The translations under genes were made by a program, and so were the position numbers. Below, piece after piece: positions 308-64,000 of a stretch of 64,000 bases of DNA. The notes under the pieces were generated by a model. It was not told where the DNA came from and ran no database searches. It saw only the letters and a list, made by a program, of their open reading frames with translations. How positions within the stretch are numbered: position 1 is the stretch's first letter; each line of letters begins with the position of its first letter. Source of the stretch: an uncultured Gammaproteobacteria bacterium (GTDB lineage Bacteria; Patescibacteriota; Patescibacteriia; Patescibacteriales; UBA12465); assembly GCA_964408775.1 (NCBI GenBank), contig CAYPAP010000001.1, forward strand, positions 353,839 through 417,838, given 5' to 3'.

Positions 308-1021
308 ATGCTATCAATAATAATACCAACTTTAAACGAAGAAAAATATTTACCAAAATTATTGGAGGATATCAAAAAGCAAACTTTTTCTGATTATGAA
401 ATTATTGTCTCTGATGGATTTTCAGGTGATGGCACGGTAGACATCGCCAAGAGATATGGATGCAAGGTTGTAATCGGTGATAAAGATAAAAGACATCCCT
501 CAATTCAAAGAAACAACGGCGTTAAGGTCGCCCGCGGAAAGTGGCTTTTGTTCTTAGACGCTGATACATTGTTTAATAATAAGTTTTTTTTAGAAAAAAC
601 AATAAAAGATTTTTCTAAAAGAGAGTTGGGAATTGCTGGTTTCTACTTAAGATTTAAATCACAGCATTTTTTTTATTTATTTTACTATTGTTTTTATAAT
701 GGCTTTTCTTTTTTAGCTCAGTATATAAAGCCCTTGGCAGTTGGAGCTGCAATTATTGTAAAAAAAGAGTTACATGAAAAGATAGGAGGTTTTGATGAAA
801 GTATTTTTATTGGTGAAGATCAGATTTATTGTGAAAAAATTTCAAAAATAAGTCGCTTCAGACTTATTAAGGGAGAATATATATTTTTTTCTATTCGTCG
901 CTTTGAGAAGGAAGGCCGCTGGAGATTATTTTTTAAATTGCTCTATTCTACTGCCTACGTCTTGCTTTTTGGTCCAATAAAGAAGAAAATTGTTAAATAT
1001 AATTTTGGCGAACACGAATAA
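308..1021 (+). CDS. Glycosyltransferase family 2 (GT-A fold)
   Basis: N-terminal IIIPTLNEEKYLPKLLEDI...YEIIVSDGFSGDGT and LFLDADT (DXD-type) motifs typical of GT2 enzymes. Confidence 0.85.
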   Translation: MLSIIIPTLNEEKYLPKLLEDIKKQTFSDYEIIVSDGFSGDGTVDIAKRYGCKVVIGDKDKRHPSIQRNNGVKVARGKWLLFLDADTLFNNKFFLEKTIKDFSKRELGIAGFYLRFKSQHFFYLFYYCFYNGFSFLAQYIKPLAVGAAIIVKKELHEKIGGFDESIFIGEDQIYCEKISKISRFRLIKGEYIFFSIRRFEKEGRWRLFFKLLYSTAYVLLFGPIKKKIVKYNFGEHE

Positions 1022-1030
1022 AAAACGGAC

Positions 1031-1318
1031 TTAATAGCCCGTTTTTTTCCTAAAAATAGTTTTTGTTATTTTTAGGAACACGACCGAGGCGATTATAGCT
1101 CCGATAGCTATAATTAGATGGTGCACAATTGGGCCGTTTATGTGGAAGACAAAGTGGGCGGCTAAAGCACTTAGTAATGCCGTTATTATAACGTCATCGG
1201 GCTCCGACTTTGATTTAGTGGAGAATAATTTCCTAGCGATTCTCCATAGAGTGATGATGGCCAGTCCCATGCCTAGGCCAATAGAAAGCAGTGCTAAAAG
1301 ATTCAATAGAGTGTCCAT
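1031..1318 (-). CDS. Small hydrophobic membrane protein, function unknown
   Basis: 95-aa ORF with 2-3 hydrophobic helices lying in an otherwise empty gap between convergent genes. No recognisable motif. Confidence 0.4.
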   Translation of the reverse strand: MDTLLNLLALLSIGLGMGLAIITLWRIARKLFSTKSKSEPDDVIITALLSALAAHFVFHINGPIVHHLIIAIGAIIASVVFLKITKTIFRKKTGY

Positions 1319-1357
1319 TTTCTGAATTATTTTTTAAACAACTATTTTTTATTTATT

Positions 1358-2728: not shown

Positions 2729-3851
2729 GTTTTTTATTTTTAATTAAATAATAAAATACTCCCATTCCCACAAGTGTGGCGACAAGAGAAAATAGCCAGC
2801 CGATATAAGGAAGAGAGAAAAGTAACCAAGCTAAAACGATGCCCGAGAAAGCCTTTAGATACCAGGAAACTTTTTCTTTTTTCCCTAGTTTAAAAATATA
2901 ATCTCCCAGCGCCAAGGCTACTATTATTTTACTAAAAAATATTAGCATTAACCACAAAGAGAAGGCTATCAGGGCTAGTGGTATTCCGAATACGGTTATT
3001 ATAGCGAGTATAACAGCGATTGGCGTTAGAAATAATATTATAGATCCGGGACCAATAGCTTTATAATTTTTTTTCAAGGAAAATTCTTTTAATTTTTCTA
3101 TTTGTTTTTTAAATAAAATGTTTAAAACCAAGAAGGTTAGAAAAACTGATATTATAGAGTAGAAAAATTTGGCAGAGCCTGGAATTTTGTGGGACTTTTT
3201 TTGAGGATCTTTTTTTGTTATTTCTCCAGCAATATTCTCTGTCTCGATATTAGCGTCTTTGTTTCCTTGGTAGCTGAGAGACCCTCCGATAATAGCTGAT
3301 TCTTCTATTTTTAAAATATTAAAGTAATTATTTTTTTTAATTCGGTCTATTTTGAGGTTAACGTTTTTTTCTACTTCGCCTCTGATTAACGTATTACCAG
3401 AAATCCCATGAAGGTTTCCTTTTACAAGGCCATTTATCTCGGAATTAATACCAAGTAATAAAACATCTTGTCCGGCGCTTGCTTTCTCAGATAAAATAAA
3501 AGACTCTCCGGCAAAATTTATATTTTTTCCGATATTTCCAGAGATATTTATGGCGTTTGAAAGCACTCGCAAATTTCCGTCGACTTTTCCAGCTATGTTT
3601 ATATTTTGGGAGGCGGCGATAACATCCCCTTTAACATGGCCGTTTATTTGTAGGTTGGAGCTAATACCGATTACGTCTCCCAAAACCTGACCTTCTATGG
3701 TCACACTTTTGGCTTGGAAATATAGATTTCCTTCAACTATTTCGTCTTTTCCGACATAGATAAAATCATTGGATTTTATAACATAGGCCTGAGAAGCTAA
3801 TGGAATTAAAAAGAATAAAGGTAGAATTAATAAAAAATAGATTTTTTTCAT
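2703..3851 (-). CDS. Membrane protein with bactofilin-like (polymer-forming cytoskeletal, beta-helix) repeats
   Basis: Signal-peptide-like N-terminus (MKKIYFLLILPLFFLIPLASQA). About 150 aa of degenerate G-x-[VI]-x-G-[DN]-[VI] repeats follow (VLGDVIGISSNLQINGHVKGDVIAASQNINIAGKVDGNLRV...), then 4-5 hydrophobic helices. It overlaps the downstream mutase gene by 26 nt. Confidence 0.6.
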   Translation of the reverse strand: MKKIYFLLILPLFFLIPLASQAYVIKSNDFIYVGKDEIVEGNLYFQAKSVTIEGQVLGDVIGISSNLQINGHVKGDVIAASQNINIAGKVDGNLRVLSNAINISGNIGKNINFAGESFILSEKASAGQDVLLLGINSEINGLVKGNLHGISGNTLIRGEVEKNVNLKIDRIKKNNYFNILKIEESAIIGGSLSYQGNKDANIETENIAGEITKKDPQKKSHKIPGSAKFFYSIISVFLTFLVLNILFKKQIEKLKEFSLKKNYKAIGPGSIILFLTPIAVILAIITVFGIPLALIAFSLWLMLIFFSKIIVALALGDYIFKLGKKEKVSWYLKAFSGIVLAWLLFSLPYIGWLFSLVATLVGMGVFYYLIKNKKHDKQSINL

Positions 3852-3978
3852 AAATTTTAAGCCCCAGTATTTTTAAATAATTTTTTATTGAAAAATTTAA
3901 GGCGACTATACTTGATTAGTTTTTTAAGTTATAATTAATATAATTAATATTAAATCATCTTTATTATAGCGCAAAAGT

Positions 3979-5625
3979 ATGAGACAAGCAACTCTAGATA
4001 TTATAGAAAATATCAAAAAAATTAAAAATGATGCCGACCTAGGTGTTTTTAAGCGTGATTTATCTAAGAAGTATGGGTTTTCTTTGTTATTGAACTCGGA
4101 TATTTTGCGAGAATATTTTTTGTTAATAAATGAAAAGAAAGTTAATGATAAATGGTTGGAAAAATATCATAATTTTTTTCTTTCTCTTTTGAAAAAGCGA
4201 GCCATTAGGACTTTATCAGGCATTGCTCCAGTAGCCGTTTTAACAAAGCCCTATCCCTGCCCGGGAGAGTGTGCTTATTGCCCCAAAAGAACCGACGTCC
4301 CGGTTAGTTATTTGCCCAATGAACCCGCCGTGATGCGAGCCTTGCGCTTAGAATTTAATCCTTATCTACAAACAATATTTCGCTTGCGCGCCCTAGAGAA
4401 TAACGGACACGAACCTAATAAAATTGAGTTAATTGTAATTGGCGGAACTTGGAGTTATTTACCTGATAAGTATAAATATTGGTATATTTTAAATTGTTTT
4501 AAGGCCGTCAATGATTATCAAAAAATAAAAGAAAAAATTATTATTACTAAAAGTGAAAAGATTGTAAAGACCAAGGAATTTTCTAAAAATATTTATTCTG
4601 AAAAATTATCCCTAAAAGATTTAAAAAAATTTTTATTACAAGAGCAAAAGAAAAACGAAAAATCTAAATATGGAATTATTGGTTTAACTTTAGAAACTAG
4701 ACCTGACTATATAGATGAGAAAGAATTGTGGCAAATGCGAGAATTGGGCTGTACTCGAGTAGAAATTGGTGTTCAGGCTGTTGATGACGATATTTTGAAG
4801 CTAAATAAGAGGGGTCATGGCGTTGATAAAATTATAGAGACAACCAAAAAATTAAAACAATTTGGTTTTAAGGTTACTTATCATTTTATGCCAGCCCTAC
4901 CTGGATCTAATCCTAAAAAAGATGTGGAGATGTATAAAAAAATATATAACAATAAAGATTTTCAACCCGATCAAATTAAATTTTATCCCACTACAGTAGT
5001 CAAAGATAGCTTGCTTTATAAATGGTGGAAGCAAGGGAAATATAAACCTTATTCTGATAAAGAATTGGAGGAAATTATTATTGAATGTAAAAAAAACACG
5101 CCAATTTATACTAGAATTATTCGTTTAATTCGCGATATTCCGGGAGAGTCAATTGAGGCTGGAAATAAAATTACTAATTTACGACAAGTGATGAAAGACA
5201 AGGGCGTGAAGTGTAATTGTATTCGTTGTCGAGAGATTAAGGGCGGAGTGATTAATAAAAGAGATTTGAGTTTAAATATTTTAAAATATCGCGCCTCAGG
5301 TGGAGATGAGTATTTTATTAGTTTTGATAGTAAGGATAAAAAAAGTTTGTATGGCTTTTGTCGTTTAAGGATTGAAAAGGGCAATAAAACTTTTCCAGCC
5401 ATAATTAGAGAACTTCATGTTTATGGTCAGTTGGTACCGATGGGGGGAAGTAAAAAAATTCAGCATAGTGGTTTAGGGAAAAGGTTGATGCAAGAAGCGG
5501 AGAAAATTACTAAGGAGGAAAAGATTAATTCCTTGGCCATTATCTCCGGCGTCGGGGTTCGAGGCTATTATCGGAAGCTGGGGTATAAACTAAAAAATAC
5601 TTATATGGTTAAAAAAATTGGTTAA
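3979..5625 (+). CDS. elp3: Elp3-like radical-SAM/GNAT tRNA wobble-uridine modification enzyme
   Basis: Radical-SAM motif CPGECAYCP, an Elp3-type central region, and a C-terminal GNAT acetyl-CoA motif (QHSGLGKRLM). Length and domain order match Elp3. Confidence 0.8.
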   Translation: MRQATLDIIENIKKIKNDADLGVFKRDLSKKYGFSLLLNSDILREYFLLINEKKVNDKWLEKYHNFFLSLLKKRAIRTLSGIAPVAVLTKPYPCPGECAYCPKRTDVPVSYLPNEPAVMRALRLEFNPYLQTIFRLRALENNGHEPNKIELIVIGGTWSYLPDKYKYWYILNCFKAVNDYQKIKEKIIITKSEKIVKTKEFSKNIYSEKLSLKDLKKFLLQEQKKNEKSKYGIIGLTLETRPDYIDEKELWQMRELGCTRVEIGVQAVDDDILKLNKRGHGVDKIIETTKKLKQFGFKVTYHFMPALPGSNPKKDVEMYKKIYNNKDFQPDQIKFYPTTVVKDSLLYKWWKQGKYKPYSDKELEEIIIECKKNTPIYTRIIRLIRDIPGESIEAGNKITNLRQVMKDKGVKCNCIRCREIKGGVINKRDLSLNILKYRASGGDEYFISFDSKDKKSLYGFCRLRIEKGNKTFPAIIRELHVYGQLVPMGGSKKIQHSGLGKRLMQEAEKITKEEKINSLAIISGVGVRGYYRKLGYKLKNTYMVKKIG

Positions 5626-5702
5626 ACTAAAAACTCATCTATTTTGACCTTAATTTTTTTTGCTATAATAGTAATACCATTAAAATAATTAATAATATAA
5701 TT

Positions 5703-6200
5703 ATGAAAACCAAAAAACCGGCCTTTACTCTAATAGAACTATTAGTAGTAATCGCCATAATTGGTATTTTGGCTACTCTAGCTGTGGTGTCCCTACAAAA
5801 TGCCAGAAAGAATGCCCGAGACGCTAAAAGAATAGCCGATGTTAGACAAATGCAAACAGCATTAGAGCTATATCATAATGACACCGGAGTATATCCACTA
5901 ACTGGAGAAATAGATAGCACTATAGCCACCGGAGGAGTAACATATATGGTAGTGGTCCCGACAGCTCCTACTCCAGCAGACGGAGACTGTGAAGAAAGTG
6001 ATAATACTTATACTTATACCTCTGCTGACGGCTTAACTTATGCTATTGGTTTTTGTACAGGCGGGGCTGTATCCAATTTGTCAGCTGGATTAAAAGAGGC
6101 CAGTCCTTCAGGGGTGGTCTATATTCCTTGGTGCGGAGAATATACAGTGACTTTTACATACAACGGAACTCCTGCAACCTACGGAACTGTAGCTGGATAA
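5703..6200 (+). CDS. Type IV pilin-like protein (class III signal), ending at an in-frame TAA inside a downstream domain
   Basis: KKPAFTLIELLVVIAIIGILA prepilin cleavage/methylation motif followed by the pilin helix RDAKRIADVRQMQTALELYHNDTGVYP. Confidence 0.85.
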   Translation: MKTKKPAFTLIELLVVIAIIGILATLAVVSLQNARKNARDAKRIADVRQMQTALELYHNDTGVYPLTGEIDSTIATGGVTYMVVVPTAPTPADGDCEESDNTYTYTSADGLTYAIGFCTGGAVSNLSAGLKEASPSGVVYIPWCGEYTVTFTYNGTPATYGTVAG

Positions 6201-6758
6201 AATAGCACTTGTTGGTTAGACCGCAATCTCGGAGCTACGCAAGTAGCCATATCCTCCACTGATGCCGCCGCTTATGGTGACCTATTCCAATGGGGCAGAT
6301 TAGATGATGGGCATCAAGTTAGAAATCCAGCTCCAGCTACATCAGCAACATTAGCCACCACCGACATCCCTGGACATGCTAGCTTTATACTTGCTCCAAA
6401 TTCTCCTTATGATTGGCGAAGTCCCCAAAGCGCTAATTTATGGCAAGGAGTAGATGGAGTTAATAACCCTTGCCCAAATGGCTGGAGAATACTAACCGAA
6501 GCAGAGTGGGAAGCCGAAAGAACAAGTTTGAGCTCAAATAATTCAGTCGGAGCCTTTGTTTCACCTTTAAAACTAACATTAGCCGGCGCCCGCATCCACG
6601 ACAATGGTTCTCTATACAATGTTGGCTCTCTCGGCGGCTATTGGGCAAGTTCCGTAGATGGTGCGAATTCGCGCTTCCTTTACTTTCATAGTAGTAATGC
6701 TTACGTGAGTAGTAGCCTCCGAGCTAATGGTTTTCCTGTGCGGTGTCTTAAGGATTAA
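6201..6758 (+). pseudogene. Remainder of a Fibrobacter-succinogenes-major-paralogous-type (Fib_succ_major) domain, cut off from the pilin ORF by a single TAA
   Basis: Same frame as 5703..6200, and open with no ATG/GTG/TTG until 6528. Translation NSTCWLDRNLGA...LFQWGR...CPNGWRILTEAEWE...GFPVRCLKD. The start of the domain (CGEYTVTF..YGTVAG) lies upstream of the stop. Confidence 0.7.
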
Positions 6759-6787
6759 TTCAATTTTTTTAAAATTTTTTCTCTAAC

Positions 6788-6816
6788 AAAAAGCTTTTTG
6801 ACACAAAGCTTTTTTT
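6788..6816. terminator. Hairpin terminator after the pilin locus
   Basis: Perfect 10-bp stem AAAAAGCTTT / AAAGCTTTTT with loop TTGACAC, followed by a T-run. Confidence 0.65.
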
Positions 6817-6826
6817 GCTTTACAAT
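6798..6826 (+). promoter_or_regulatory. Sigma-70-like promoter for glyA-folD
   Basis: TTGACA (6798-6803), a 17-nt spacer, then TACAAT (6821-6826), about 60 nt upstream of the glyA start. Confidence 0.5.
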
Positions 6827-6887
6827 AAGATTGTTGTTAGCCCTTAATTTAGGTTAATTTTTAATTTATTTTTAATAATTTATTGAT

Positions 6888-8132
6888 ATGAATTTTAATA
6901 ACAATTTATCATCTAGCGATGAGTTTTTGTATAAACTAATAGAGAAAGAAGAAGAGAGACAAGAAAACGAAATCGAGCTAATTGCCTCCGAAAACTATGC
7001 TTCGCCGGCCGTTTTAGAGGCCATGGCTTCGGTTTTGAATAATAAATACAGTGAAGGTTATGCCGGTAAAAGATATTATGGCGGAAATTCGGTTATCGAC
7101 GAGGTGGAAACCTTAGCCATAGAAAGATTAAAGCAACTTTTTGGAGCCGAACACGCCAACGTTCAGCCGCTTTCGGGCTCCCCCGCTAACGCTTCGGTTT
7201 ATATGGCTTTTTTAGAACCTGGAGACAAGGTTTTGGGCTTAAAATTGGATCACGGCGGGCATTTATCACACGGTCATGGAGTAAATTTTTCTGGTCGCTT
7301 ATATAATTTTGTTCAATATGAAGTAGAAGAAAATGGTTTCATAGACATGGAAAAAGTGAGAGAAATCGCCAAGCAAGAAAAACCAAAAATGATAGTAGCT
7401 GGCTTTAGCGCTTATTCCAGAAATATGGATTGGAAAAAATTCAAAGAAATCGCTGACGAAGTTGGGGCTTATACTTTCGCCGATATTGCCCATATTGCTG
7501 GTTTAATTGCCGGAAAAGTAATAGATAGTCCGGTGCCATATTTTGATGTTATTTCTAGTACCACCCATAAAACTTTACGTGGACCCCGCGGAGCCTTCAT
7601 TTTATGTAAAGAAAAATTTGCCAAGCAAGTTGATAGGGCGGTTTTTCCAGGTATGCAAGGCGGACCACACGATCACATTACTGCTGCTAAGGCCGTGTCC
7701 TTCAAAGAAGCCTTGGAGCCAGAATTCAAAACCTACTGTCAGCAGGTTATAAAAAACGCTCAAAAAATGGCCGAGGAATTTATTAAAAAAGATTATAAAA
7801 TTATTTCTGATGGGACCGACAATCATTTAATGGTCATAGATTTGCAAAATAAAAATATTTCCGGGTTAGAGACGGAACAAGCTTTAGAAAAAGTTGGAAT
7901 TTCTGTTTCGCGCTCTACTATTCCTAATGACCCCGCCCCACCAATGCGCCCCTCGGGGATTAGAATTGGAACCCCAGCCATTACTACCAGAGGATTTAAA
8001 GAAGAAGAGGTTGTGCTTTTAGTGGAACTAATAGATGAGGCTATAAAAAATAAAGAAGATGATAAAAAATTAGAAGAAATAAAAAAACAGGTTCAAGTCT
8101 TGTGTCAAAAATTTCCTATTTATAAAAAATAG
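6888..8132 (+). CDS. glyA: Serine hydroxymethyltransferase
   Basis: Full-length SHMT with GGHLSHG and the PLP-lysine region [13 protein letters not shown]. Confidence 0.95.
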
Positions 8133-8182
8133 AAGCAAGGTTTTTAATTAGTAAAAATAAAAAAGTAAAAATAAATAAAAAA

Positions 8183-9043
8183 ATGAAAATAATTGATGGC
8201 AAAAAAATTGCCGAAAAAATTAAAGATGATATCGCTAAAAATGTTTTTGACTTAGTACAAAAAGAGCGGCGCCGACCTTCTCTAGCAATTATTTTAGCTG
8301 GCGAGAGGGAAGATTCTAAAATATATGTAAACTTAAAAGAAAAATCAGCCAAAGAAGTTGGTGTTGATACTAGTTTATATTTAATAGAAGAAGATGATGG
8401 TGAGGACAATATTATTAATACTATAAAATTTCTGAATCAAGATACAATGATAGATGGAATTTTGGTCCAACTACCACTGCCAAAGAAATTTAATACCGAT
8501 AAAATTTTAAAAATGATTAACCCCGAAAAAGATGTGGATGGTTTTTGTAAAAGTAAAAATAAGTTTTTGTTATCCCCTGTTATTTTGGCCACTGAGTATA
8601 GTTTAAAAAATTGTAAAGTTAATTTAAAAAATAAAAAATCTTTCCTCTTCTGCAATTCAGAAATTTTTAAAAACGAAATGAAAGAATTTTTTCTTAGTAA
8701 AGGGCTGGAATTTGATTTTATAAAAAGTGACGAGCTGGAGAAAGTTTTAGGCGGTAACAACGAGCAAAGAAAGCAAGATTTATATAAAAGGGTTAGGTCT
8801 AATGACATCCTTATTACGGCCATGGGCAAACCAGAAATAATTGACAAAAACTTTTTAAAGGACGATATGATCTTAATTGATGTTGGTATTACTAAGGTTG
8901 GTGATAAGGTTTTGGGAGATATAAAAAGATCTGACACTGAAAAACTGGCGGGGTATCTTACTCCAGTTCCTGGGGGTATAGGGCCAGTGACAGTCGCCTG
9001 TTTATTAAAAAATGTTTTACAAGCCTACTTACCTAGGGGTTAA
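8183..9043 (+). CDS. folD: Bifunctional methylenetetrahydrofolate dehydrogenase/cyclohydrolase
   Basis: IDGKKIAEKIK N-terminus, ILVQLPLP motif and C-terminal TPVPGGIGPVTVACLL. Confidence 0.9.
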   Translation: MKIIDGKKIAEKIKDDIAKNVFDLVQKERRRPSLAIILAGEREDSKIYVNLKEKSAKEVGVDTSLYLIEEDDGEDNIINTIKFLNQDTMIDGILVQLPLPKKFNTDKILKMINPEKDVDGFCKSKNKFLLSPVILATEYSLKNCKVNLKNKKSFLFCNSEIFKNEMKEFFLSKGLEFDFIKSDELEKVLGGNNEQRKQDLYKRVRSNDILITAMGKPEIIDKNFLKDDMILIDVGITKVGDKVLGDIKRSDTEKLAGYLTPVPGGIGPVTVACLLKNVLQAYLPRG

Positions 9044-9080
9044 ACGCTATTTTAAAAACCAAACTTTATTTAAAATAAAA

Positions 9081-9105
9081 AAAGAGCCTGAGCTCTTTTG
9101 CATTT
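9081..9105 (+). terminator. Rho-independent terminator after folD
   Basis: Stem AAAGAGC / GCTCTTT with loop CTGA, followed by a T-rich tract. Confidence 0.6.
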
Positions 9106-9128
9106 TTGTTTTTTGCGCAGACACACTT

Positions 9129-9266
9129 TTAGCCAGCGCTTTTTATTATAAAGAGGGTGAATACAAGTAGGGCAAACACTACAATTGCTGTTATAATGTT
9201 TACAACTATGGGGTTAATTTGGGAATCGCTAGAACCCGATTTACGGGCCTGATCACTTTTTTTCAT
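9129..9266 (-). CDS. Unlisted 45-aa single-pass membrane peptide
   Basis: ATG (complement of 9264-9266) preceded by a strong SD (AAAGGAGGAGCC). Translation MKKSDQARKSGSSDSQINPIVVNIITAIVVFALLVFTLFIIKSAG*. It is below the ORF-track size cutoff. Confidence 0.45.
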   Translation of the reverse strand: MKKSDQARKSGSSDSQINPIVVNIITAIVVFALLVFTLFIIKSAG

Positions 9267-9294
9267 GGCTCCTCCTTTTTAAATTTTTAAAACA

Positions 9295-11115
9295 ATGAAC
9301 AACTTAAATAACATTAATATAAAAAAAGAAAAAATTCAAGGGTTATTAAAAAAATATTATAATTTTTCTGATTTTCGCTTGGGACAGGAGGTGGCTATTG
9401 ATAATATTTTATCTGGTAAAGATACCGTTGTTATAATGCCAACTGGAGGTGGTAAGTCTTTGATTTTTCAATTATCAGCTTTGGTTTTGGATGGAGTTAC
9501 TATTGTGGTTTCTCCCCTTATTGCGCTGATGAAAGACCAGGTCGATTCCCTAACAGAACTAGGGATTCCGGCTACTTTTATTAACTCCTCTATTTCGTTG
9601 TCAGAAACTACACAGCGTTTAGAGCAGGTAAAAAATGGTTTTTATAAAATAGTTTATGTGGCACCCGAAAGATTCTATAGTCAGCCTTTTTTAGAGGCAC
9701 TTAGCCAACTAAAAATATCACTTTTTGCTATTGATGAAGCTCATTGTATTAGTCAATGGGGTCATGATTTTCGTCCCAGTTATTTAAGACTAAAAAATAC
9801 TATAGAATTTTTAAAAAATCCAACCGTGGTGGCTTTGACAGCTACAGCAACAATTGAGGTCCGACACGATATAGTTAAACAATTAAGTCTAAAAAACCCC
9901 GAGGTAATTGTTACTGGTTTTGCTAGAAAAAATATTCAGTTTGGGGTTATACACTGTTCTTCCAGCCGTAAAGCAGACTTTATTTTAGACGCTATTTCTG
10001 GCTCAGGGGGTGGCTCTGGAATCGTGTACGTCGGAACCAGAGCCAAGGCTGATGAGATCTTAGAAAAACTTTTAGAAAATGGAATTGAAGCAGTGGCTTA
10101 TCATGCGGGAATGGATAGTGACAGTCGAGAGTGGGTACAAAATAGTTTTATGTCTGGCCAAGCTCAGGTGGTAGTGGCGACCAATGCTTTTGGTATGGGA
10201 ATAAATAAAAAAGATATTCGTTTTGTTATTCATCATGATATCCCCGGAACTGTTGAGGCCTATTATCAAGAAGCTGGTCGAGCCGGTCGCGACGGACTTC
10301 CTAGTCTATGTTTGCTTTTGTATTCCCCCAGTGATAGATACTTACGCGAATTTTTTATTAAAGGCGACAATCCTGAACCAGAAATAATTATTAATATTTA
10401 TGAAAAATTATTAGAAAAAGAAGATGATTTGGGATTAGACGAAATTAGTGACGCCGGCAAATCAATTTTAATAACCTATGCTGAATTAGCCAAAGAGCTT
10501 TCTCTCAACGTTCCAGAAATGGCCATTGGAACAGCTTTAAAAATTCTAGAAAAAGAGGGTTATTTATCTCGTCCCAATGACAAAAATGGCCAAGCCTTTC
10601 TTAAAATTAAAAGCGATTTTAATTCTTTATTATCAGCCCTTAGCTCTCGGGCCAAGGTGCAGATAGAGGCTCTTAATAAGTTGTATGATAAATTTAAGGA
10701 TGAGCTAGAAAAGGGATCGGAATTTAATTTTGATGATGTCGCTAGTATTATTAATATTAAAAAAGACTCTATTTTAAGACTAATAAAAAATTTAGCCGAA
10801 AAAGATTTAGTAGAATATCGACCTCCCTTTAGAGGGACTGAAATTAGGATTTTAAAAAGGGTTGCCCCGGAAGATTTGAAATTAGATTTTAAAGCTCTAG
10901 AAGAAAAGCTAAAAAATGCTGAAAGGCGTTTAAACGAAATGGAAAATTATGCTTATTTTTCTGGTTGCCGTCAGGCTTATATCTTACGTTACTTTGGTGA
11001 GCAGGATGTTAAAAATTGTGGTAAATGTGACCAGTGTTTGAGAGGTTTTTCCGATGATAATAATGACTATGAAGAACCCGCCAAAAATTTTCGTCAACGA
11101 GAGTATTTAACTTAG
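9295..11115 (+). CDS. recQ: ATP-dependent DNA helicase RecQ
   Basis: Walker [13 protein letters not shown] box [18 protein letters not shown], and RecQ C-terminal Zn/winged-helix region (CGKCDQC). Confidence 0.9.
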
Positions 11116-41945: not shown

Positions 41946-42088
41946 CAGAGGTCCGAGTGGGATTCGGCCACACGTCGCTAAGCCTCGCTTGCCTGCTTTG
42001 CAGTCTTCGCTCGCTAAGGCGCTCTGGCCTGGCCTTGGCGGTGCGTCACTTCGTTCCGCACATCGCCTCCGGCTTTCGAATCCCACTC
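41946..42088 (+). repeat. GC-rich structured insert (copy 'a' of the repeat family), beginning with a 21-bp duplicate of the tRNA-Cys 3' end
   Basis: 41946-41966 is identical to 42138-42158. A 12-bp inverted repeat, GAGTGGGATTCG (41955-41966) / CGAATCCCACTC (42077-42088), closes a GC-rich core. The core holds the family hairpin GTGCG-TCACTTCGTTC-CGCAC (42041-42061). Confidence 0.75.
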
Positions 42089-42099
42089 TCTTGTCTTAT

Positions 42100-42136
42100 A
42101 AAAAAAACCAACCCAAAGCAGTTTGGATTGGTTTTT
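42100..42136 (-). terminator. Rho-independent terminator downstream of tRNA-Cys
   Basis: On the minus strand: stem ACCAATCCAAA / TTTGGGTTGGT with loop CTGC, followed by T8. Confidence 0.7.
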
Positions 42137-42140
42137 CCAG

Positions 42141-42214
42141 AGGTCCGAGTGGGATTCGAACCCACGAGTGGCGGTTTTGCAAACCGCAGTGTTAAACCAC
42201 TTCACCATCGGACC
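42141..42214 (-). tRNA. tRNA-Cys (anticodon GCA)
   Basis: Hand-folded cloverleaf: acceptor GGTCCGA/TCGGACC, anticodon stem GCGGT/ACCGC with loop TTGCAAA, T-arm GTGGG-TTCGAAT-CCCAC, and discriminator U as expected for tRNA-Cys. No CCA is encoded. Confidence 0.9.
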
Positions 42215-59052: not shown

Positions 59053-59889
59053 ATGGCAAAGAAACAAAAAATAAAAGTTGAAGGTATTGAAATTATTGCT
59101 TTTATCAATAATAATATTGATTATATTTCTTTGACTGATATAGCCCGCCACAAAAATTCTGCCTTTCCAGCCGATGTTGTAAAAAATTGGATGAGAAATC
59201 GCGGGACGATTGACTTTTTGGGACTATGGGAAAAACTACATAATCCAGCTTTTAAACTGGTCGAATTTGACCAGTTTAAAAATGAGGCCGGTGTTAATTC
59301 TTTTGTGTTGCCACCACAAAAATGGATAGAAAAAACTCGCGCCATTGGTTTAATTTCAAAATCCGGAAGATACGGAGGCGGTACTTTTGCGCATAAAGAC
59401 ATTGCATTTGAATTCGCCTCTTGGGTGAGCGCGGAATTTAAACTATATTTATTGGTTGAATTTCAACGACTTAAACAAGACGAAAATAGCCGCTTGAAAT
59501 TAGAATGGAATCTTCAAAGAACACTGGCGAAAATCAATTATAAGATTCATACTGATGCCATAAAAGAGAAATTAATTCCGCTCAAATTGACCAAGGAGCA
59601 GATTGCCATGGAATATGCCAACGAAGCTGACTTACTTAATGTTGCACTGTTTGGAGTAACTGCAAAGATGTGGCCAGACCAAAATTCAAAACTAAAAGGA
59701 AATATTAGGGATCATGCCTCAATTGAACAGTTGGTGGTTTTGTCTAATCTTGAAAGTATAAACGCATTATTGATTCGTGAAGGACTTTCTCAACAAGATC
59801 GAATTGTAAAATTGAACGGCACTGCGATTATCCAGATGAGATCGCTTCTAACAAGCGATGAAACAAAGAAGCTGGAATTGCCAAAATAA
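59053..59889 (+). CDS. KilA-N domain-containing DNA-binding protein (phage/mobile-element associated)
   Basis: DYISLTDIARHKN..DVVKNWMRNRGTIDFLGLWE..GRYGGGTFAHKDIAFEFASWVSAEFKLYL matches the KilA-N family as I remember it. Confidence 0.8.
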   Translation: MAKKQKIKVEGIEIIAFINNNIDYISLTDIARHKNSAFPADVVKNWMRNRGTIDFLGLWEKLHNPAFKLVEFDQFKNEAGVNSFVLPPQKWIEKTRAIGLISKSGRYGGGTFAHKDIAFEFASWVSAEFKLYLLVEFQRLKQDENSRLKLEWNLQRTLAKINYKIHTDAIKEKLIPLKLTKEQIAMEYANEADLLNVALFGVTAKMWPDQNSKLKGNIRDHASIEQLVVLSNLESINALLIREGLSQQDRIVKLNGTAIIQMRSLLTSDETKKLELPK

Positions 59890-59978
59890 AAATAATAAGG
59901 TGTTTTTTCGCGGAGCTCATCTCGTCGAATGGCGGGGTTGCGAAAGCGATTTAAATTAATTTAAAAAATGAATAGTGA

Positions 59979-60143
59979 TTTCCGGTTATTGATGTTATTG
60001 AGGTTTTGACAGGAATTAAAAGACCTGAAAAATATTGGAGTGATATTGAGAAGAGATTAAAAAATGAGAGCAATATTGAGTTGTCCGAAAAAATCGGACA
60101 ACTAAAATTAATATTTAGAGGCGGAAAGCATGAGGATGTTTAG
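59979..60143 (+). pseudogene. Fragment of a Bro-N/antirepressor-like gene
   Basis: A start-less open frame. FPVIDVIEVLTGIKRPEKYWSDIEKRLKNESNIELSEKIGQLKLIFRGGKHEDV* resembles the middle of Bro-N domain proteins (..VDVVEVLT...YW..LK.RL..EG.EL...I.QLKL...DGK..). Confidence 0.5.
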
Positions 60144-60388
60144 CGGTATTTTAACGAGAAGTGTGGGTGGGGGCTAAAATTGATTTTAGTGGATATTTTT
60201 AGTATAAGTAGATTTATAAAGAAGGAATAATTTCTTTTTGTTCGTATAATATGCAGATTTTTACTTTTTTTAGCAATAAGTTCGCATAATAACCAGTTAT
60301 ACGCAATTCAAAAAATATTTTTCTAACGGAGAATAAGGAATGATAGGCTTTCAAAGAGGAATAAATTTGATTTTTTCTTTATTTAATG

Positions 60389-60468
60389 AGGGGGACAATA
60401 TGGTATTTTCTCCACTTCGTTGCGAAAACAATTTATTTATAAATTGAAAAACATAACAAAACTTATAT
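60389..60468 (+). repeat. Degenerate repeat copy 'f' upstream of the SDR gene
   Basis: Holds the family hairpin TTTTC-TCCACTTCGTTGC-GAAAA (60406-60428). A decayed end reads AAAAC-TTATAT (about 60458-60468), against the family end AAACGTTAWAT. Confidence 0.5.
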
Positions 60469-60492
60469 AATACAAATAACTTTTAATTTATT

Positions 60493-61293
60493 ATGGAGAA
60501 TAATATGAAACCACTTGAAGGAAAAATTGCACTTGTGACTGGTGGAACCCGCAATGTTGGGAAAGGAATCGCTATAGGCTTAGGCGAAGCAGGTGCTACT
60601 GTCTATGTAACCGGAAGAAGTATTACCGACAAAGATGTTAAAGGAATTACAACTGCTGGTGGAAAAGGTATTGCCTTAGTATGCAATCATGAAAATGACG
60701 ATGAAGTAAAAAAGATATTTGAACTTATCAAAGAAAAAGAAGGAAAACTGGATATCTTGGTTAACAATGCTTGGGGTGGTTATAATCGTTTACGCAACAG
60801 AACAAAATATAAAGGTTTTAAGTGGAAAGAATTTTTTTGGAAACAACCCTTGGAATTATGGGATGAAATGAACAATGTTGGTGTTCGTTCAAATTTTGTC
60901 GCAAACGTTTTTGCTTCCGAAATGATGATTAAACAAAAACAAGGATTGATTGTAAATATTTCTTTTTACGCCAGTCGCAAATATTATGGAAATGTAATTT
61001 ATGGCATTGCAAAGGCGGCTGTTAATAAAATGTCTATGGATATGGCAGTCGAACTTAAACCACACAATATTGCTTGCGTTTCATTATATCCAGGATATAT
61101 TGACGACAATAAAAAGAAACCTAACCCAAAAAAAGAATCTTCGCAATTCGTTGGAAGAGCAATAGTCAATTTGGCTTCTGATAAAAATATAATGTCAAAA
61201 ACAGGTAGTATCTTAGCCGCTGCCGAATTGGCGAAAGAGTATGACTTTAAAGATATTGATGGCACTCAACCTATACCATATGACACAATGTAA
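60493..61293 (+). CDS. Short-chain dehydrogenase/reductase (SDR) family oxidoreductase
   Basis: ALVTGGTRNVGKGIA (TGxxxGxG), NNAW, and the catalytic YGIAKAA (YxxxK). Confidence 0.85.
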   Translation: MENNMKPLEGKIALVTGGTRNVGKGIAIGLGEAGATVYVTGRSITDKDVKGITTAGGKGIALVCNHENDDEVKKIFELIKEKEGKLDILVNNAWGGYNRLRNRTKYKGFKWKEFFWKQPLELWDEMNNVGVRSNFVANVFASEMMIKQKQGLIVNISFYASRKYYGNVIYGIAKAAVNKMSMDMAVELKPHNIACVSLYPGYIDDNKKKPNPKKESSQFVGRAIVNLASDKNIMSKTGSILAAAELAKEYDFKDIDGTQPIPYDTM

Positions 61294-61430
61294 GATTTTA
61301 ATAATGAGTTTTAAAAAATGAAATTCACCCCTAACCCCTCTTTCATTTTTCAAAACGGAAAAAATCAAATTTATAATAATTTAGGAGAGCCTGTCATAAT
61401 GAGTAAAAACGAAAAATATTTTTTGAACTC

Positions 61431-61576
61431 ACTCCGCTACGCTCCGTGCCACGCTGCGCTCTCCTCCTTTCAGTCGTCGGGGCGTATAACAGCGGATATG
61501 AGGTTCGCCCATCGGCTCGGGGCTCACCCAAATTGCTCACTTCGTTCGCAACTTCTCATATCCGCAAACGTTAAAT
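61431..61576 (+). repeat. Structured GC-rich repeat copy 'b' (attC-like)
   Basis: Blocks in order: ACTCCGC, CCACGCTGCG, GTATAAC (61484-61490), GCGGATATGAG (61492-61502), GCTCGG, CCCAAATT, hairpin TTGC-TCACTTCGTTC-GCAA (61533-61551), CTCATATCCGC (61555-61565), AAAC, GTTAAAT (61570-61576). Confidence 0.75.
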
Positions 61577-61593
61577 GAAATAATAAAAAATTT

Positions 61594-61890
61594 ATGGCTA
61601 TTGAAGTTATTTTTTATCTCGTAATATTTATATGTATCTGTGGTTTGGCATATGCAATGTATGAGGTTGTAAAAAATAAGGATTATTATACGCCAAAACA
61701 AATCTGGGACAGAATAACAGAAGAAAAAGAAAGTAAAAGTCTAAGTAGTTTGCCTTTTAGACTGCTAGGACTGAAGGTTCCGAATATTACATCTAGAAAA
61801 TTTGATGCAATTTTTTTTCTGACAGTATTATTATTATTTATAATCATCATAATTATTTCAGCAGTAATGATAATAATTGAAAAGCTATAG
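61594..61890 (+). CDS. Small two-helix membrane protein, function unknown
   Basis: 98-aa ORF with hydrophobic helices at both ends. It starts 17 nt after repeat 'b'. Confidence 0.5.
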   Translation: MAIEVIFYLVIFICICGLAYAMYEVVKNKDYYTPKQIWDRITEEKESKSLSSLPFRLLGLKVPNITSRKFDAIFFLTVLLLFIIIIIISAVMIIIEKL

Positions 61891-61962
61891 ATCTTTTATT
61901 ATATTATAATAAGAGTGTACATTTGGTTGTATATTTTACACAAAAACTTCCATCTATATTTA

Positions 61963-62008
61963 CCTCCGCTACGCTATGGCAAACATCAGATATGCTGAAA
62001 CGTTAAAT
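61963..62008 (+). repeat. Internally deleted repeat copy 'c'
   Basis: The family 5' block CTCCGCTACGCT (identical to copy b) is joined to the 3' end ..AGATATGCTGAAACGTTAAAT (GTTAAAT at 62002-62008). The central ~100 nt is missing. Confidence 0.65.
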
Positions 62009-62068
62009 GAAATTAAAAACCAGTCCTAAGAACGATAGATTTTTATAAACTTAATAATTAAATAAGTT

Positions 62069-62386
62069 ATGCCAAACGAATTTCAAAAAAATGTGAAAAA
62101 GTTTATGGATGATAGTGCCATGAACAATCCTGTTGAAAATAGGATGCTAGATTTAGTAGATGAAATTGGAGAAGTAGCAAAAGAAATCAATAAAATGTCC
62201 CAATATGGCACAAAAGAACCAAAGTTTAGAGAAGAAATAAGAACAGAAATTGGAGACGCTTTTTATTCTTTAATAACTGTTGCCAATTACTATGATGTTG
62301 ATATGCTTGATTCACTTGATAAAGTTATAAAAAAATACAAGAAGAGAATTGAAAAAGGTGGACATGCTGGCTCTGAGAATGATTAA
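62069..62386 (+). CDS. MazG-like nucleoside triphosphate pyrophosphohydrolase (small all-alpha type)
   Basis: LVDEIGEVAKEI ... EIGDAFYSLITVANYY (ExxE...ExxD metal motifs); 105 aa. Confidence 0.75.
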   Translation: MPNEFQKNVKKFMDDSAMNNPVENRMLDLVDEIGEVAKEINKMSQYGTKEPKFREEIRTEIGDAFYSLITVANYYDVDMLDSLDKVIKKYKKRIEKGGHAGSEND

Positions 62387-62404
62387 CGGGCTGGTTTTTA
62401 ACTT

Positions 62405-62559
62405 GCTCCGTTTTACTCCGCACCACGCTGCGTTCTCACTCCACTACGTTCAGTTCGGGCCACTTAACAAGGGATAAAAGGAAAATCACTCAGCTCGGCA
62501 TTTTCCCAAATTTTCTTTCACTTCGTTCCAGAAAACTTCTCATATCCCTAACGTTATAT
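62405..62559 (+). repeat. Structured GC-rich repeat copy 'd' (attC-like)
   Basis: Same ordered blocks as copy b: ACTCCGC, CCACGCTGCG, ACTTAAC (62462-62468), GGGATAAAAG, hairpin GGAAAAT..ATTTTCC, CCCAAATT, hairpin TTTTCT-TTCACTTCGTTCC-AGAAAA (62511-62535), CTCATATCCC, TAAC, GTTATAT (62553-62559). Confidence 0.75.
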
Positions 62560-62622
62560 TTAATTTGAGTCGTGGCAAAACAATAGTAAAACTTTTAAAT
62601 TTTAATTTTTTACCAATTTAAT

Positions 62623-63168
62623 ATGACAAATGTAACTTTTATAACCGGAAATCAAAGCAAGGCAGATTACTTATCCAAATATTTAGGATATCCAGTAGAT
62701 CATGTAAAGCTTGATTTGGACGAGATTCAATCTACCGATCTAAATGAGATCGTTGAGCATAAAGTCAAGCAAGCATACGATTTAATACAAAGACCTGTAA
62801 TTGTAGAAGATGTTTCTTTGGAGTTTGAAGCTCTTGGTGGCTTGCCAGGTCCTTTTATAAAATTCTTTGTAGAAAAAGTTCCATTTGAAACAATCTGCTC
62901 AATGATTGGCGGCGGATTAACAAGAAAGGCTACAGCAAGGTGTGTTTTTGGTTATTTTGATGGCGAAGATTTAGAATTGTTTGAAGGTAGTCTGGGTGGT
63001 GAAATCGCTGAAAAGCCTTCAGGAAATAATGGTTATGGATGGGATAAAATCTTTATTCCAGAGGGTTATACTATTACAAGAGCATCACTTGACGAAGAGG
63101 GGAACCAAAAAACATATTTGAAAGTTAAGCCATTTTCTAAATTGAAAAAATATTTGGAATCGAAATGA
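62623..63168 (+). CDS. Non-canonical purine NTP pyrophosphatase (HAM1/ITPase/RdgB family)
   Basis: VTFITGNQSK and VEDVSLEFEALGGLPGPFIKFF, with GYGWDKIF. It ends at TGA. Confidence 0.85.
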   Translation: MTNVTFITGNQSKADYLSKYLGYPVDHVKLDLDEIQSTDLNEIVEHKVKQAYDLIQRPVIVEDVSLEFEALGGLPGPFIKFFVEKVPFETICSMIGGGLTRKATARCVFGYFDGEDLELFEGSLGGEIAEKPSGNNGYGWDKIFIPEGYTITRASLDEEGNQKTYLKVKPFSKLKKYLESK

Positions 63169-63224
63169 TAAAAAAGGTAAAAGTTTTGTAATTAATAAAT
63201 AAATTCCACGACTCAAACTCTGAA

Positions 63225-63368
63225 ATTTTCCTTCGGCACGTTGCACTAAATTTTAGCCCTACGGTGAATGTAGCAGGGTTTATGAGGAAATTTGCTCGGT
63301 TCGCCGCTCACCCAAATTTTTCCTACACTTCGTTCCAGAAAAATTTCGTATATCTCTGACATTATCGG
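63225..63368 (+). repeat. Degenerate repeat copy 'e'
   Basis: GCTCGG, GCTCACCCAAATT and the hairpin ATTTTTC-CTACACTTCGTTCCA-GAAAAAT (63316-63344) are retained. Both terminal boxes are decayed (GTGAATGT and GACATTATC). A further AACGTTCAAT lies at about 63475-63484. Confidence 0.6.
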
Positions 63369-63568
63369 AAATAGCATATATTTTTCTCGGAGATTGGAAG
63401 GATTTTGTTCCGCAAGAAAACCAAAAAAGCGAAACTATGAATCAAGAAGTGTTGGTGCTAACAAAAAAATAAAAAACGTTCAATTACACTAAGGAGTAAA
63501 AAATGTTTACTACATCCGATATGAAAGAAATTCCTTATAAAATTATTAATTATTAAGTTTTTCACAAA

Positions 63569-64000
63569 TATGAAAGAAAAAATAGAACAATTTTCTGTCG
63601 CTAATCAACCCGATAATAACATTGTTGAATTAATTCAAAAACAACAAAAACAATGTTCAGAGCATGTTACTGAGTTAACAACAGAACAAATAGAAGATTT
63701 GCTAAAACAAGGGAATTATTTTTTTGTGAAGCAAGATGATAAAATTTTAGCATCAGGGTATAAAATGCCTTTAATAAATGATGCGAATGAAGACGAACAA
63801 ATATATAGATTGGGTGGTTTGTCAATTTTAGATTTTAAAAACTCTTCTGTTGAATCTAAAAAGAATATGTTACTTCTTTTTCAAAAAATAAAAGAGCATT
63901 TTGAAAAAACAAAGGCACAATTAATAATGAAAACAGATAATCCTGTCTTGGCCAGAGTTTTAAAGAGTATGGGGGCAGAAGAGCTGTCTTATGACGAGTG
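63569..64000 (+). CDS. 5' part of an ORF running off the window; function unknown (possibly acetyltransferase-like)
   Basis: ATG at 63569, and the frame stays open to base 64000 (MKEKIEQFSVANQPDNNIVELIQ...). It is absent from the ORF track because no stop is present. The GNAT guess rests only on size and context. Confidence 0.45.

Follow-up and report, generated by a model that had tools for sequence, protein, structure and literature searches.

Why does one short sequence recur at the apex of hairpins whose stems all differ? The question arises in a 64,000-nt stretch of DNA from a Patescibacteria genome, placed near Ca. Falkowbacteria by the names attached to close atpC homologues (contig CAYPAP010000001.1; the whole stretch is called the window here), in which the 9-mer CACTTCGTT was found five times, on the + strand only, at 42047, 60413, 61538, 62519, and 63326 (copies a to e). 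Dinucleotide shuffles gave an expectation of 0.26 copies, and none of 100 shuffles contained five; when one mismatch was allowed, 14 matches were found against 9.3 expected, which is no enrichment. Each copy is the apex of a hairpin with its own complementary stem and reads AACGAAGTG on the - strand. The five hairpins are as follows.

Copy a, 42041-42061, - strand: hairpin GTGCG/CGCAC; - strand apex GA-AC-GAA-GT-GA
Copy b, 60406-60428, + strand: leader hairpin TTTTC/GAAAA; - strand apex GCA-AC-GAA-GT-GGA
Copy c, 61530-61554, - strand: hairpin B with stem AAGTTGC/GCAATTT (one G·T pair), for which TTGC/GCAA (61533-61551) had previously been given as the core stem; apex GA-AC-GAA-GT-GA
Copy d, 62511-62535, - strand: hairpin B with stem TTTTCT/AGAAAA, longer on the - strand as AAGTTTTCT/AGAAAATTT; apex GGA-AC-GAA-GT-GAA
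Copy e, 63316-63344, - strand: hairpin B with stem ATTTTTC/GAAAAAT; apex GGA-AC-GAA-GT-GTA

An earlier note on this DNA had described a hairpin with a different complementary stem at each of the five loci, and all of these stems are present. The note had also taken the copies to be related. This is correct for copies c, d, and e, which are mutually homologous over ~150 nt and each lie 3' of a cassette-like gene on the + strand. Copy b lies inside a conserved cassette leader, shortly 5' of a promoter, and copy a lies inside a GC-rich unit beside a tRNA-Cys gene, in a family different from that of c, d, and e; these two copies are the same mini-hairpin in other settings.

We propose, with a probability of roughly 0.7, that copies c, d, and e each form the tip region of hairpin B, one of the arms of ~100-nt attC-like sites in an integron-like array. 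The sites would end each gene cassette of a small array in this Patescibacteria genome, and the cassettes would be exchanged by a tyrosine recombinase that is related to IntI and XerA and lacks the IntI-specific domain. In other loci, the gene of such a recombinase lies divergently beside an attI/dif-like site resembling the one at 60240-60306. Each site is predicted to fold on the - (bottom) strand into an R stem (TAAC/GTTA), an unpaired spacer, an L stem, and a three-way junction with two variable hairpins. At the tip of hairpin B, AACGAAGTG would form an AC/GT mini-stem closing a GAA triloop between G·A mismatches, and this apex may be a DNA mini-hairpin of great stability, which would lock or nucleate the fold rather than be read out as a sequence. 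As a variable terminal structure the flagged loop is ordinary, its mini-hairpin having a stabilising role; the cassette system around it uses an unusual integrase-like enzyme and seems undescribed.

Architecture of the hairpin apex

Relatives were gathered from metagenomes with a loop-agnostic scan anchored on the flanking conserved blocks ACCCAAATT…ATATCC…AACGTT. The scan returned at least 120 loci; about 110 of the 120 metagenome loci listed are true relatives, and the matches listed supplied 131 hairpin copies that had been collected without requiring the loop. An earlier pattern for genome contigs, CCAAATTN{1,14}CACTTCGTT, was permissive, with about 110 of its 120 listed loci being chance matches and 8 being true members, and the viral contigs scanned gave two matches, both by chance. 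The true members found with that pattern lie in records titled Kerfeldbacteria, Patescibacteria, Bacillota, Gammaproteobacteria, and archaea, and several of these contigs are short and may be mis-binned.

Hairpin B was present in 67 distinct versions among the 131 copies, with an apex of 2-19 nt and main stems that include TTGC/GCAA, TTTTTCT/AGAAAAA, TTTTGC/GCAAAA, TTCGCCC/GGGCGAA, and TTGTGCT/AGCACAA. The motif CACTTCGTT was the commonest apex (36/131), and ~70% of the family members were without it. These counts reveal that the stem of hairpin B co-varies and that the loop is not invariant. The invariance claimed in the earlier note therefore holds inside the window and is lost among the relatives, where the homologues of copies b and a also diverge; those of b in the L199 locus, for example, read CACTCCGTT and CACTCTGTT.

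The apex is conserved in its build, with an internal loop rich in G·A, then a 2-bp mini-stem that co-varies, and finally a GNA triloop. On the - strand, 96 of the 131 apices consist of a symmetric purine-rich internal loop followed by a 2-bp mini-stem and then a triloop, and in another 16 copies the triloop is placed straight on the main stem. The internal loops are rich in G·A (GGA/GGA in 29 copies, GA/GA in 28, GAA/GGA in 10, and others), and they are purine-rich on the bottom strand only; the + strand equivalent consists of pyrimidine·pyrimidine mismatches. The mini-stem co-varies through at least six pair combinations (AC/GT 46, CC/GG 19, GC/GC 12, GT/AC 7, and CT/AG 6 among them), and the triloop is of the GNA type in 94 of the 112 classifiable copies (GAA 72, GTA 17, GGA 3, and GCA 2). 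CACTTCGTT is therefore the complement of A-[AC-GAA-GT]-G.

GNA triloops of the d(GCGAAGC) type, with sheared G·A pairs, are exceptionally stable DNA mini-hairpins. The - strand apices ACGAAGT, CCGAAGG, and GCGTAGC follow the same plan (N-C-GAA-G-N'), and the GNA triloops of the family often have adjoining tandem G·A pairs. These apices differ from that type in that their closing pairs vary, and the stability is known for the d(GCGAAGC) type itself. An architecture of this kind is what a variable terminal structure tolerates, so the loop is not "beyond" an attC-type site, contrary to the earlier suggestion that it exceeds what the variable terminal structure of an attC would require.

The earlier note had further inferred that the loop is a fixed determinant that is read sequence-specifically; the reader of the apex CACTTCGTT/AACGAAGTG would be an accessory protein or the recombinase. 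Several observations fit such a role. The same 9-mer sits on at least four stems (TTGC, TTTTTCT, TTTTGC, and GTGCG), it is the commonest apex among the matches listed, it is found in three non-homologous settings and in some 5' extensions of the sites (L058), and in L254 it persists despite a both-side change in the pair that closes the stem. However, most of the family dispenses with the motif, apex length and hairpin sequence vary widely, and some 3-nt loops (TTGC-GTA-GCAA) keep all other features of the site. The central pairs of the motif co-vary, and the homologues of b and a diverge within it. The note had proposed looking for a co-occurring protein gene, and one does recur, the recombinase described below; it is the only recurrent neighbour, and no candidate reader gene is present in the loci. 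We consider a read-out of the loop unlikely.

Near-identical sites were found in records of different labels, namely L029, L033, and L096 (archaeon, Ca. Ethanoperedens, Methanosarcinales), L038 (Bacillota), and L110 (Gammaproteobacteria). Two of the contigs labelled as archaeal or as lying outside the candidate phyla radiation (CPR) are 79-84 kb long. Sites in such metagenome-assembled contigs reflect either spread across phyla or domains or mis-binned CPR contigs.

Fold of the attC-like site

The window contains three such sites with a hairpin B, which were scored with a profile of the family.

61483-61579, - strand: core of element c, the best-preserved attC-like site in the window (nhmmer 79.4 bits), with R'' AAC at 61488-61490, L'' at 61492-61502, hairpin A at ~61506-61524, the junction CACCCAAATT at 61525-61534, hairpin B, then L' at 61555-61565 and R' AAACG|TTAAAT; crossover G61570|T61571 (the bar marks the crossover)
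62395-62559, - strand: element d, 5' extension and core (62462-62559), nhmmer 49.6 bits; crossover G62553|T62554
63205-63370, - strand: element e, 5' extension and core (63269-63370), degenerate or hybrid, nhmmer 49.3 bits

Element d is partly decayed, because its L'' (GGGATAAAAGG) no longer matches its L' (CTTCTCATATCCC). Element e combines an ATGAG-type L'' with a CGTAT-type L', and decay has left GACA|TT as its R' (63358-63363).

The consensus fold was derived from an alignment of 54 diverse bottom-strand sequences (A2), which has 24 consensus pairs. It comprises the R stem TAAC/GTTA, separated by a short spacer from a 9-11-bp L stem, together with hairpin B and a GGT/ACC helix closing hairpin A. 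The three-way junction has the nearly invariant sequence AATTTGGGTG on the bottom strand, which is CACCCAAATT on the + strand, a conservation that is atypical for attC. The spacer between R and L is a short asymmetric bubble (on the bottom strand, 2-4 nt at its 5' side but 0-1 nt at its 3' side), smaller than the canonical one, and the L stem is an uninterrupted helix, so that unpaired bases are found only in the spacer and in the three-way junction.

The results revealed standard pairs in 95.8% of the cells of this alignment compared with 87.2% in shuffles (none of 500 shuffles reached the observed value) and 31-51% with slid partners. Changes on both sides of a pair occurred in 141 cells versus 57 expected, and the covariation score was 0.266 versus 0.117 for the control. 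The R and L stems are paired in 92-96% and include both-side changes; the pairs of the L stem and of hairpin B change on both sides, and hairpin A also varies with compensatory changes, while AAC and GTT are invariant or nearly so in the 54 sequences. Selection for pairing in the stems is thus supported, as the earlier note had argued from the five copies, in saying that a folded nucleic acid is under selection.

Several features favour the bottom strand. A G·T pair is present on the bottom strand in 53 of the 54 sequences, and its top-strand equivalent would be A·C. Folded as DNA, the bottom strand of element c reached -17.1 kcal/mol (z = -3.4) versus -14.7 for the top strand, that of the L047 site -18.4 kcal/mol (z = -4.0) versus -15.9, and that of element d -10.5 kcal/mol versus -7.9, an advantage of 2.4-2.6 kcal/mol; the fold of element e was no better than that of shuffles (z = -0.12). 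By analogy with attC, the folded molecule is plausibly single-stranded DNA. The note's suspicion that the family may not be plain attC was also borne out, given the three-way junction, the L stem without extrahelical bases, and a recombinase without the IntI-specific domain.

The elements might instead act as RNA, as 3'-UTR (untranslated region) stabilisers, terminators, or antisense RNAs, rather than as recombination sites. Each element lies directly 3' of an open reading frame (ORF), the structures are conserved and co-varying, and some sense-strand apices read C(UUCG)G. Nevertheless, the search of Rfam that the note had proposed returned no family overlapping any of the five copies even at E ≤ 10, and in the window only the tRNA-Cys attained a gathering score (62.1 bits). 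No terminator-like site was called at any copy; hairpin B has an AT-rich stem with CTTCGTATATCC after it, and no T-run stands behind the hairpins of the elements. Both the wobble pair, which is conserved, and the purine-rich loops speak for the antisense strand. An RNA role also leaves unexplained why homology breaks off at G|TT, why R'' matches the start of its own cassette, and why the elements are linked with a recombinase and an attI-like site, all described below. We therefore regard a function as RNA as very improbable.

Cassette exchange and the units that carry copies b and a

The sites delimit a small cassette array that extends from 60297 to about 64100 and has housekeeping genes on both flanks in the parent contig, in which the array ends after its fifth gene without a further site. 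Its platform, leader, and genes are as follows.

60240-60306, + strand: attI/dif-like platform site, consisting of a direct repeat, two arms, and a centre
60240-60251, + strand: direct repeat GTTCGTATAATA of the platform site
60280-60289 and 60290-60296, + strand: left arm GTTCGCATAA and centre TAACCAG
60297-60306, + strand: right arm TTATACGCAA, from the first cassette; junction G60296/T60297 (G60296|T60297)
60297-60492, + strand: conserved non-coding cassette leader of ~200 nt, 5' of the short-chain dehydrogenase (SDR) gene
60444-60471, + strand: promoter-like site TTGAAA-16-TATAAT (11/12 matches), directly 3' of hairpin b
60493-61293, + strand: cassette gene 1, short-chain dehydrogenase (Pfam adh_short, E = 4.5e-32)
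61594-61890, + strand: cassette gene 2, 98-aa predicted membrane protein, followed by a truncated site only
62069-62386, + strand: cassette gene 3, MazG-like nucleotide pyrophosphohydrolase (Pfam MazG, E = 2.4e-09)
62623-63168, + strand: cassette gene 4, Ham1/ITPase family (Pfam Ham1p_like, E = 3e-33)
63570-64000, + strand: cassette gene 5, 177 aa, without a Pfam match, running past the end of the window

The family profile found arrays of up to 8 sites in the same orientation, 0.5-2 kb apart, and across the sites conservation ends right after AACG|TT. Whole units recur between otherwise different loci. L216 548-1787 is 91% identical to L189 8059-9301, and besides a short site-to-site match this is the sole segment shared by these 11-12-kb loci. 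The Ham1 cassette (62551-63287) has a counterpart of 82% identity at L217 5799-6538, although that locus is otherwise unrelated, and the match begins at the crossover. The SDR region 60400-61337 shares 88% identity with L199 3968-4898, part of another array, and the leader 60297-60492 is 93% identical to L199 2952-3156, beginning exactly at the crossover. In the window and in L141, this leader comes after the attI-like site, and in L199 it comes after an attC-like site (TTATACGCAATTC…), as attI×attC and attC×attC recombination would produce.

The sites also match the cassettes that they end. The 6 nt located 5' of the R'' AAC are complementary to the start of their own cassette at all six positions in 17 of 32 cassettes, and the mean match was 4.47/6 for the own start compared with 3.34 for that of the next cassette (Wilcoxon p = 0.002); in element c, for example, R'' (CGTATAAC) is the complement of the start of its own cassette at 60297. 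Circular cassettes opening at G|TT have such a match as their signature. Taken as genome comparisons, these data show exchange of cassettes at AACG|TT.

These results also bear on whether the elements are miniature transposable elements (MITE- or REP-like) in intergenic regions. The elements are indeed repeated, palindromic, intergenic, and widespread across metagenomes. However, they share one orientation per array, each copy lies 3' of a gene, and whole gene-plus-site units move between arrays; target-site duplications and transposon-type terminal inverted repeats are absent, and no transposase or RAYT gene recurs in the loci. This explanation is accordingly the most improbable that we weighed.

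The remaining features of the array accompany its sites.

61308-61356, + strand: upstream module of element c, a hairpin GAAAAATGAA/TTCATTTTTC with the C-rich loop ATTCACCCCTAACCCCTCT (inverted repeat I22)
61421-61486, + strand: 5' extension of element c (…CTCACTCCGCTACGCTCCGTGCCACGCTGCGCTCTC…), of which there are several classes across loci
61960-62008, + strand: truncated attC-like site (direct repeat D5), 79% identical to 61550-61587

The hairpin module at 61308-61356 is a second conserved loop with a co-varying stem, common to 22 loci with both-side stem changes, and belongs to a 3' block of ~265 nt that is conserved among many cassettes. The 5' extensions at 61421-61486, 62400-62465, and 63216-63268 lie upstream of R'', have the core ACG(C/T)TGC(G/A)CT, and fall into several classes; in some loci (e.g., L058), they include a second CACTTCGTT-like mini-hairpin without a main stem. 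The truncated site retains CTCCGCTACGCT of the 5' extension and CAGATATGCTGAAACG|TTAAATG, with the crossover at G62002|T62003, and is without hairpins A and B and the motif. The Ham1 cassette has different 3' site halves in the window (63269-63370) and in L217 (6520-6615). Together with the mixed L'' and L' types of element e, a hybrid of this kind suggests that the exchange took place inside the conserved junction sequence and not at G|TT. A coding reading of element c was also considered, as the gene caller had called an 86-aa ORF at 61318-61578 and a 59-codon frame starts at 61400. We rejected it because such ORFs are present in 8 of 22 homologous units, in different frames, and the indels in the hairpins are not multiples of three; the 86-aa ORF is most likely spurious on these comparisons.

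Copy b belongs to the leader. The promoter-like site at 60444-60471 has the top score in 59880-64000, is conserved in the L199 and L141 leaders, and is followed by a GGAG ribosome-binding site and then by the SDR start codon. Copy b was considered as a decayed attC and rejected, as it is a conserved leader hairpin beside a promoter and the nhmmer profile of the family finds no match there. The gene-less leader with its strong promoter-like site precedes different cassette genes (window 60297-60492; L199 2952-3156 and 3968-4070; L141) and is often the first unit after the attI-like site, and it may, to judge from this placement, be the promoter cassette of the array. A KilA-N domain gene (59053-59889, + strand) adjoins the attI-like site on its upstream side, at the place where other loci have the recombinase gene.

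Copy a lies in a unit of another family, at the following features.

41946-42139, - strand: unit of copy a, GC-rich, with a 21-nt copy of the tRNA-Cys 3' end at 41946-41966 that is repeated at 42138-42158
42140-42214, - strand: tRNA-Cys (GCA), called by ARAGORN; Rfam tRNA 62.1 bits

This unit forms a three-way structure closed by a 12-bp stem, GAGTGGGATTCG (41955-41966) with CGAATCCCACTC (42077-42088), in which the tRNA 3'-end copy pairs with its inverted repeat. The hairpin GTGCG-GAACGAAGTGA-CGCAC is the first arm on the - strand, and a hairpin followed by a T-run is located at ~42095-42135. The DNA fold of the - strand has -32.9 kcal/mol (z = -4.1), and 8 of the 37 pairs show a compensatory change. 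Homologous units number one in L247, 1.5 in L254, and 2.5 in tandem in L253, with none in L245 or L248. They are ~185-195 nt long, gene-less, and directly 3' of tRNA-Cys (L247 3516-3713, L254 3291-3578, and L253 3874-4306). The apex of a is kept on GTGCC…GGCAC in L254 and fully paired as GTGCAC-GAA-GTGCAC in L253, and the motif is lost in L247.

A non-coding RNA gene (tmRNA-, SRP-, or tRNA-like) was considered for this unit and rejected, as no Rfam or ARAGORN match and no promoter-like site upstream on the - strand were found. Because the units are tandem, vary in copy number, and are bounded by tRNA 3'-end repeats, a DNA-level element is indicated instead. The folded outer stem reproduces the duplex sequence of the tRNA end and so imitates it, following the logic by which attC imitates attI; hence the units may, as a hypothesis built on this analogy, be gene-less mini-cassettes at tRNA-Cys. 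Two relatives have toxin-antitoxin genes at the place of the unit. In the relatives, the interval from atpC to tRNA-Cys is an insertion hot spot (L245 3581-5364, L253 3118-3812, and L254 3683-4426) that holds toxin-antitoxin pairs (a nucleotidyltransferase with a partner; Gp49 with a helix-turn-helix, HTH, protein) and an rve-family transposase.

The recombinase and the kinship of the system

A tyrosine recombinase of 270-292 aa is encoded divergently beside the array in all six of the loci found from the DNA side in which such a gene was present. In a search that started from the protein, all four loci with DNA have an attI-like site, and all three with upstream sequence contain sites of the family. 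The attI-like site lies ~100-130 nt 5' of the recombinase start codon (L141, L145, L212, L236, L199, and L249-L252) and consists of two direct repeats, TTCG(C/T)ATAA, followed by AAC(C/G)AG|TTA…. The recombinase family has more than 7,500 homologues, mostly in Patescibacteria.

The top solved relative of the recombinase is VchIntIA (2A3V, E = 1e-45, 159.8 bits), ahead of XerA (137.6 bits) and XerD (81.6 bits). Residues 191-240 of VchIntIA, the 50 residues of the IntI-specific domain, are replaced by 8 aa. MacDonald et al. 2006 reportedly identified this additional domain of IntI as the part that contacts the extrahelical bases. Against the integron-integrase model TIGR02249 of NCBIfam, the recombinase scored 205-228 bits in two stretches, below the cut-off of 265, and against the XerA model NF040815 it scored 209-230 bits, reaching the cut-off of 220 in some loci. 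The additional domain is what defines an IntI, in archaea as in bacteria (PMC9668308), and canonical attC sites, whose features we took from PMC7439510, have two extrahelical bases in the stem.

The likeness to integrons is nevertheless extensive. The R box of attC (RYYYAAC on the bottom strand, paired with GTTRRRY, with recombination between A and C, that is, G|TT on the top strand) was found in the sites. Like attC, they are imperfect palindromes of the form R''-L''…L'-R' with an invariant AAC/GTT and a variable terminal structure, and their bottom strand folds better, which is consistent with use as single-stranded DNA. One site accompanies each promoter-less gene in a single orientation, and the single-gene cassettes are common to several arrays. 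The divergent recombinase gene lies beside an insertion site with direct repeats, the attI-like site, which is joined at G|TT. As in sedentary chromosomal integrons (e.g., the Vibrio cholerae repeats), sites within a lineage are similar, and R'' matches its own cassette start. The system differs from integrons in its recombinase without the additional domain; in a perfect 9-11-bp L helix without the two extrahelical bases (typically G and T, ~6 bp apart); in its short asymmetric spacer; in a three-way-junction terminal structure with the near-invariant CACCCAAATT; in conserved modules 50-160 nt further upstream; and in its Patescibacteria hosts. No description of such a system was found in the searchable integron, attC, and dif literature on Patescibacteria, CPR, and Parcubacteria, in which subscription journals are thinly covered, so that a prior description is possible.

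Several points weigh against reading the array as integron-like. The recombinase is without the domain held essential for attC recombination (PMC9668308, PMC8138268), and the L stem is without extrahelical bases. We infer, rather than observe, recombination as folded single-stranded DNA, and every site-cassette junction can also be read as a duplex Xer-type site, for example CTTCGTATAT-CCCTAACG-TTATACGCAA. A purely structural role of the apex explains incompletely why the exact 9-mer is found on different stems in three unrelated settings. The nearest-neighbour energy model leaves the 11-13-nt apex open, and the added stability ascribed to GNA triloops and to tandem G·A pairs is general knowledge rather than a computed value. 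Finally, no recombinase gene or remnant was found in the window or the next 9 kb (Pfam on 30 ORFs and tblastn with five recombinases). Because of this and of the degeneration of sites d and e, activity in this genome is doubtful, and the cassette platform is probably inactive here.

The same features raise the alternative that the platform is the dif/Xer module of the chromosome, with a single Xer recombinase, the attI-like site as dif at the terminus, and cassettes that behave like integrative mobile elements exploiting Xer (IMEX) through a folded-hairpin attP. The attI-like site can be written as a Xer-type site, GTTCGCATAA-TAACCAG-TTATACGCAA, with two inverted arms of ~10 bp around a centre of 7 bp; the cassette junction falls where the centre meets the right arm. 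This arrangement agrees with the definition of Xer/dif sites, which have inverted arms of ~11 bp, a centre of 6-11 bp, and cleavage at the arm border (PMC5357621). The absence of the IntI-specific domain, the XerA scores in some loci, and the large number of homologues, as expected of a housekeeping gene, point in the same direction. In the coordinates of locus L001, the GC skew was +0.19 to +0.29 at 1-8000, +0.05 to +0.12 at 8001-11000, and mostly negative beyond; it is positive across almost the whole window, changes sign at the array, and is near 0 within it, and gene orientation turns from + to - at the array. The array at ~60300-64000 (L001 8000-11500) is probably the replication terminus of the chromosome.

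Precedents for such a module have been described. The pairs xerS-difSL, xerH-difH, and some xerA-dif are single modules with dif beside the recombinase gene (PMC5357621), CTXφ integrates at dif as folded single-stranded DNA by a single strand exchange (PMC3442271), and a "Cand" group of Xer-related recombinases comes from candidate phyla (PMC8138268). It is because of these three precedents, the Xer-type reading of the site, and the skew switch that the platform may be a dif/Xer module. However, the skew on the recombinase side was inconsistent in nine other loci (six with values of +0.05 to +0.12, three with values of -0.17 to -0.30), the closest solved relative of the enzyme is VchIntIA rather than a Xer protein, and the site in the window has no adjoining recombinase gene. 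On balance, we hold a dif/Xer module to be a possibility with clearly less than even chances. It retains the cassette reading of the hairpin and places the system in another family.

Known Xer-dependent systems resemble the array in part. In CTXφ-type IMEX at dif, inverted half-sites ~60-90 nt apart could fold to imitate a duplex target, the recombinase is Xer-like and without the IntI insertion, the site has two arms and a 7-bp centre, and elements accumulate in tandem; the site in the window likewise lies at a GC-skew switch. The present system differs in having single-gene cassettes instead of phages, many cassettes with one conserved site, and arrays of up to at least 8 units, and the terminus location applies to this window only. 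The XerS/difSL, XerH/difH, and XerA/dif systems likewise have the recombinase gene directly beside the site, and XerA is similar in protein size and domain make-up, in addition to the NF040815 scores; those systems are without flanking cassette arrays, and their sites are plain duplexes of 28-31 bp. The pdif modules of Acinetobacter plasmids are also gene modules bounded by Xer-type sites in differing contexts, but their sites are 28-bp duplexes in alternating orientation, with no ~100-nt palindrome, no array adjoining a recombinase gene, and no attI-like site.

Returning to the integron-like array, we note that the cassette system has the architecture by which integrons are defined, with cassette arrays, a G|TT crossover, a divergent recombinase gene, an attI-like site, and cassettes shared between arrays, and that it is without two features held essential, namely the IntI-specific domain and the extrahelical bases, the presumed target of that domain. 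In a recent survey, IntegronFinder detected no complete integron on about 97% of the contigs that have "integron-type" recombinases, and missed attC sites were suggested as one reason (PMC13323075); sites of the present kind could account for part of this gap. More speculatively, and in our view doubtfully, the system may be a widespread "proto-integron" of Patescibacteria, an evolutionary and mechanistic intermediate between Xer/dif-IMEX and integrons, in which a single Xer/IntI-like recombinase without the IntI-specific domain would sit beside a dif-like site (here at the terminus) and take up single-gene cassettes by way of ~100-nt three-way-junction sites, and in which the GAA-triloop mini-hairpin would be shared by single-stranded DNA substrates including the tRNA-Cys units. 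If the platform site is truly the dif of the chromosome, the origin of integrons from Xer recombination would become directly testable.

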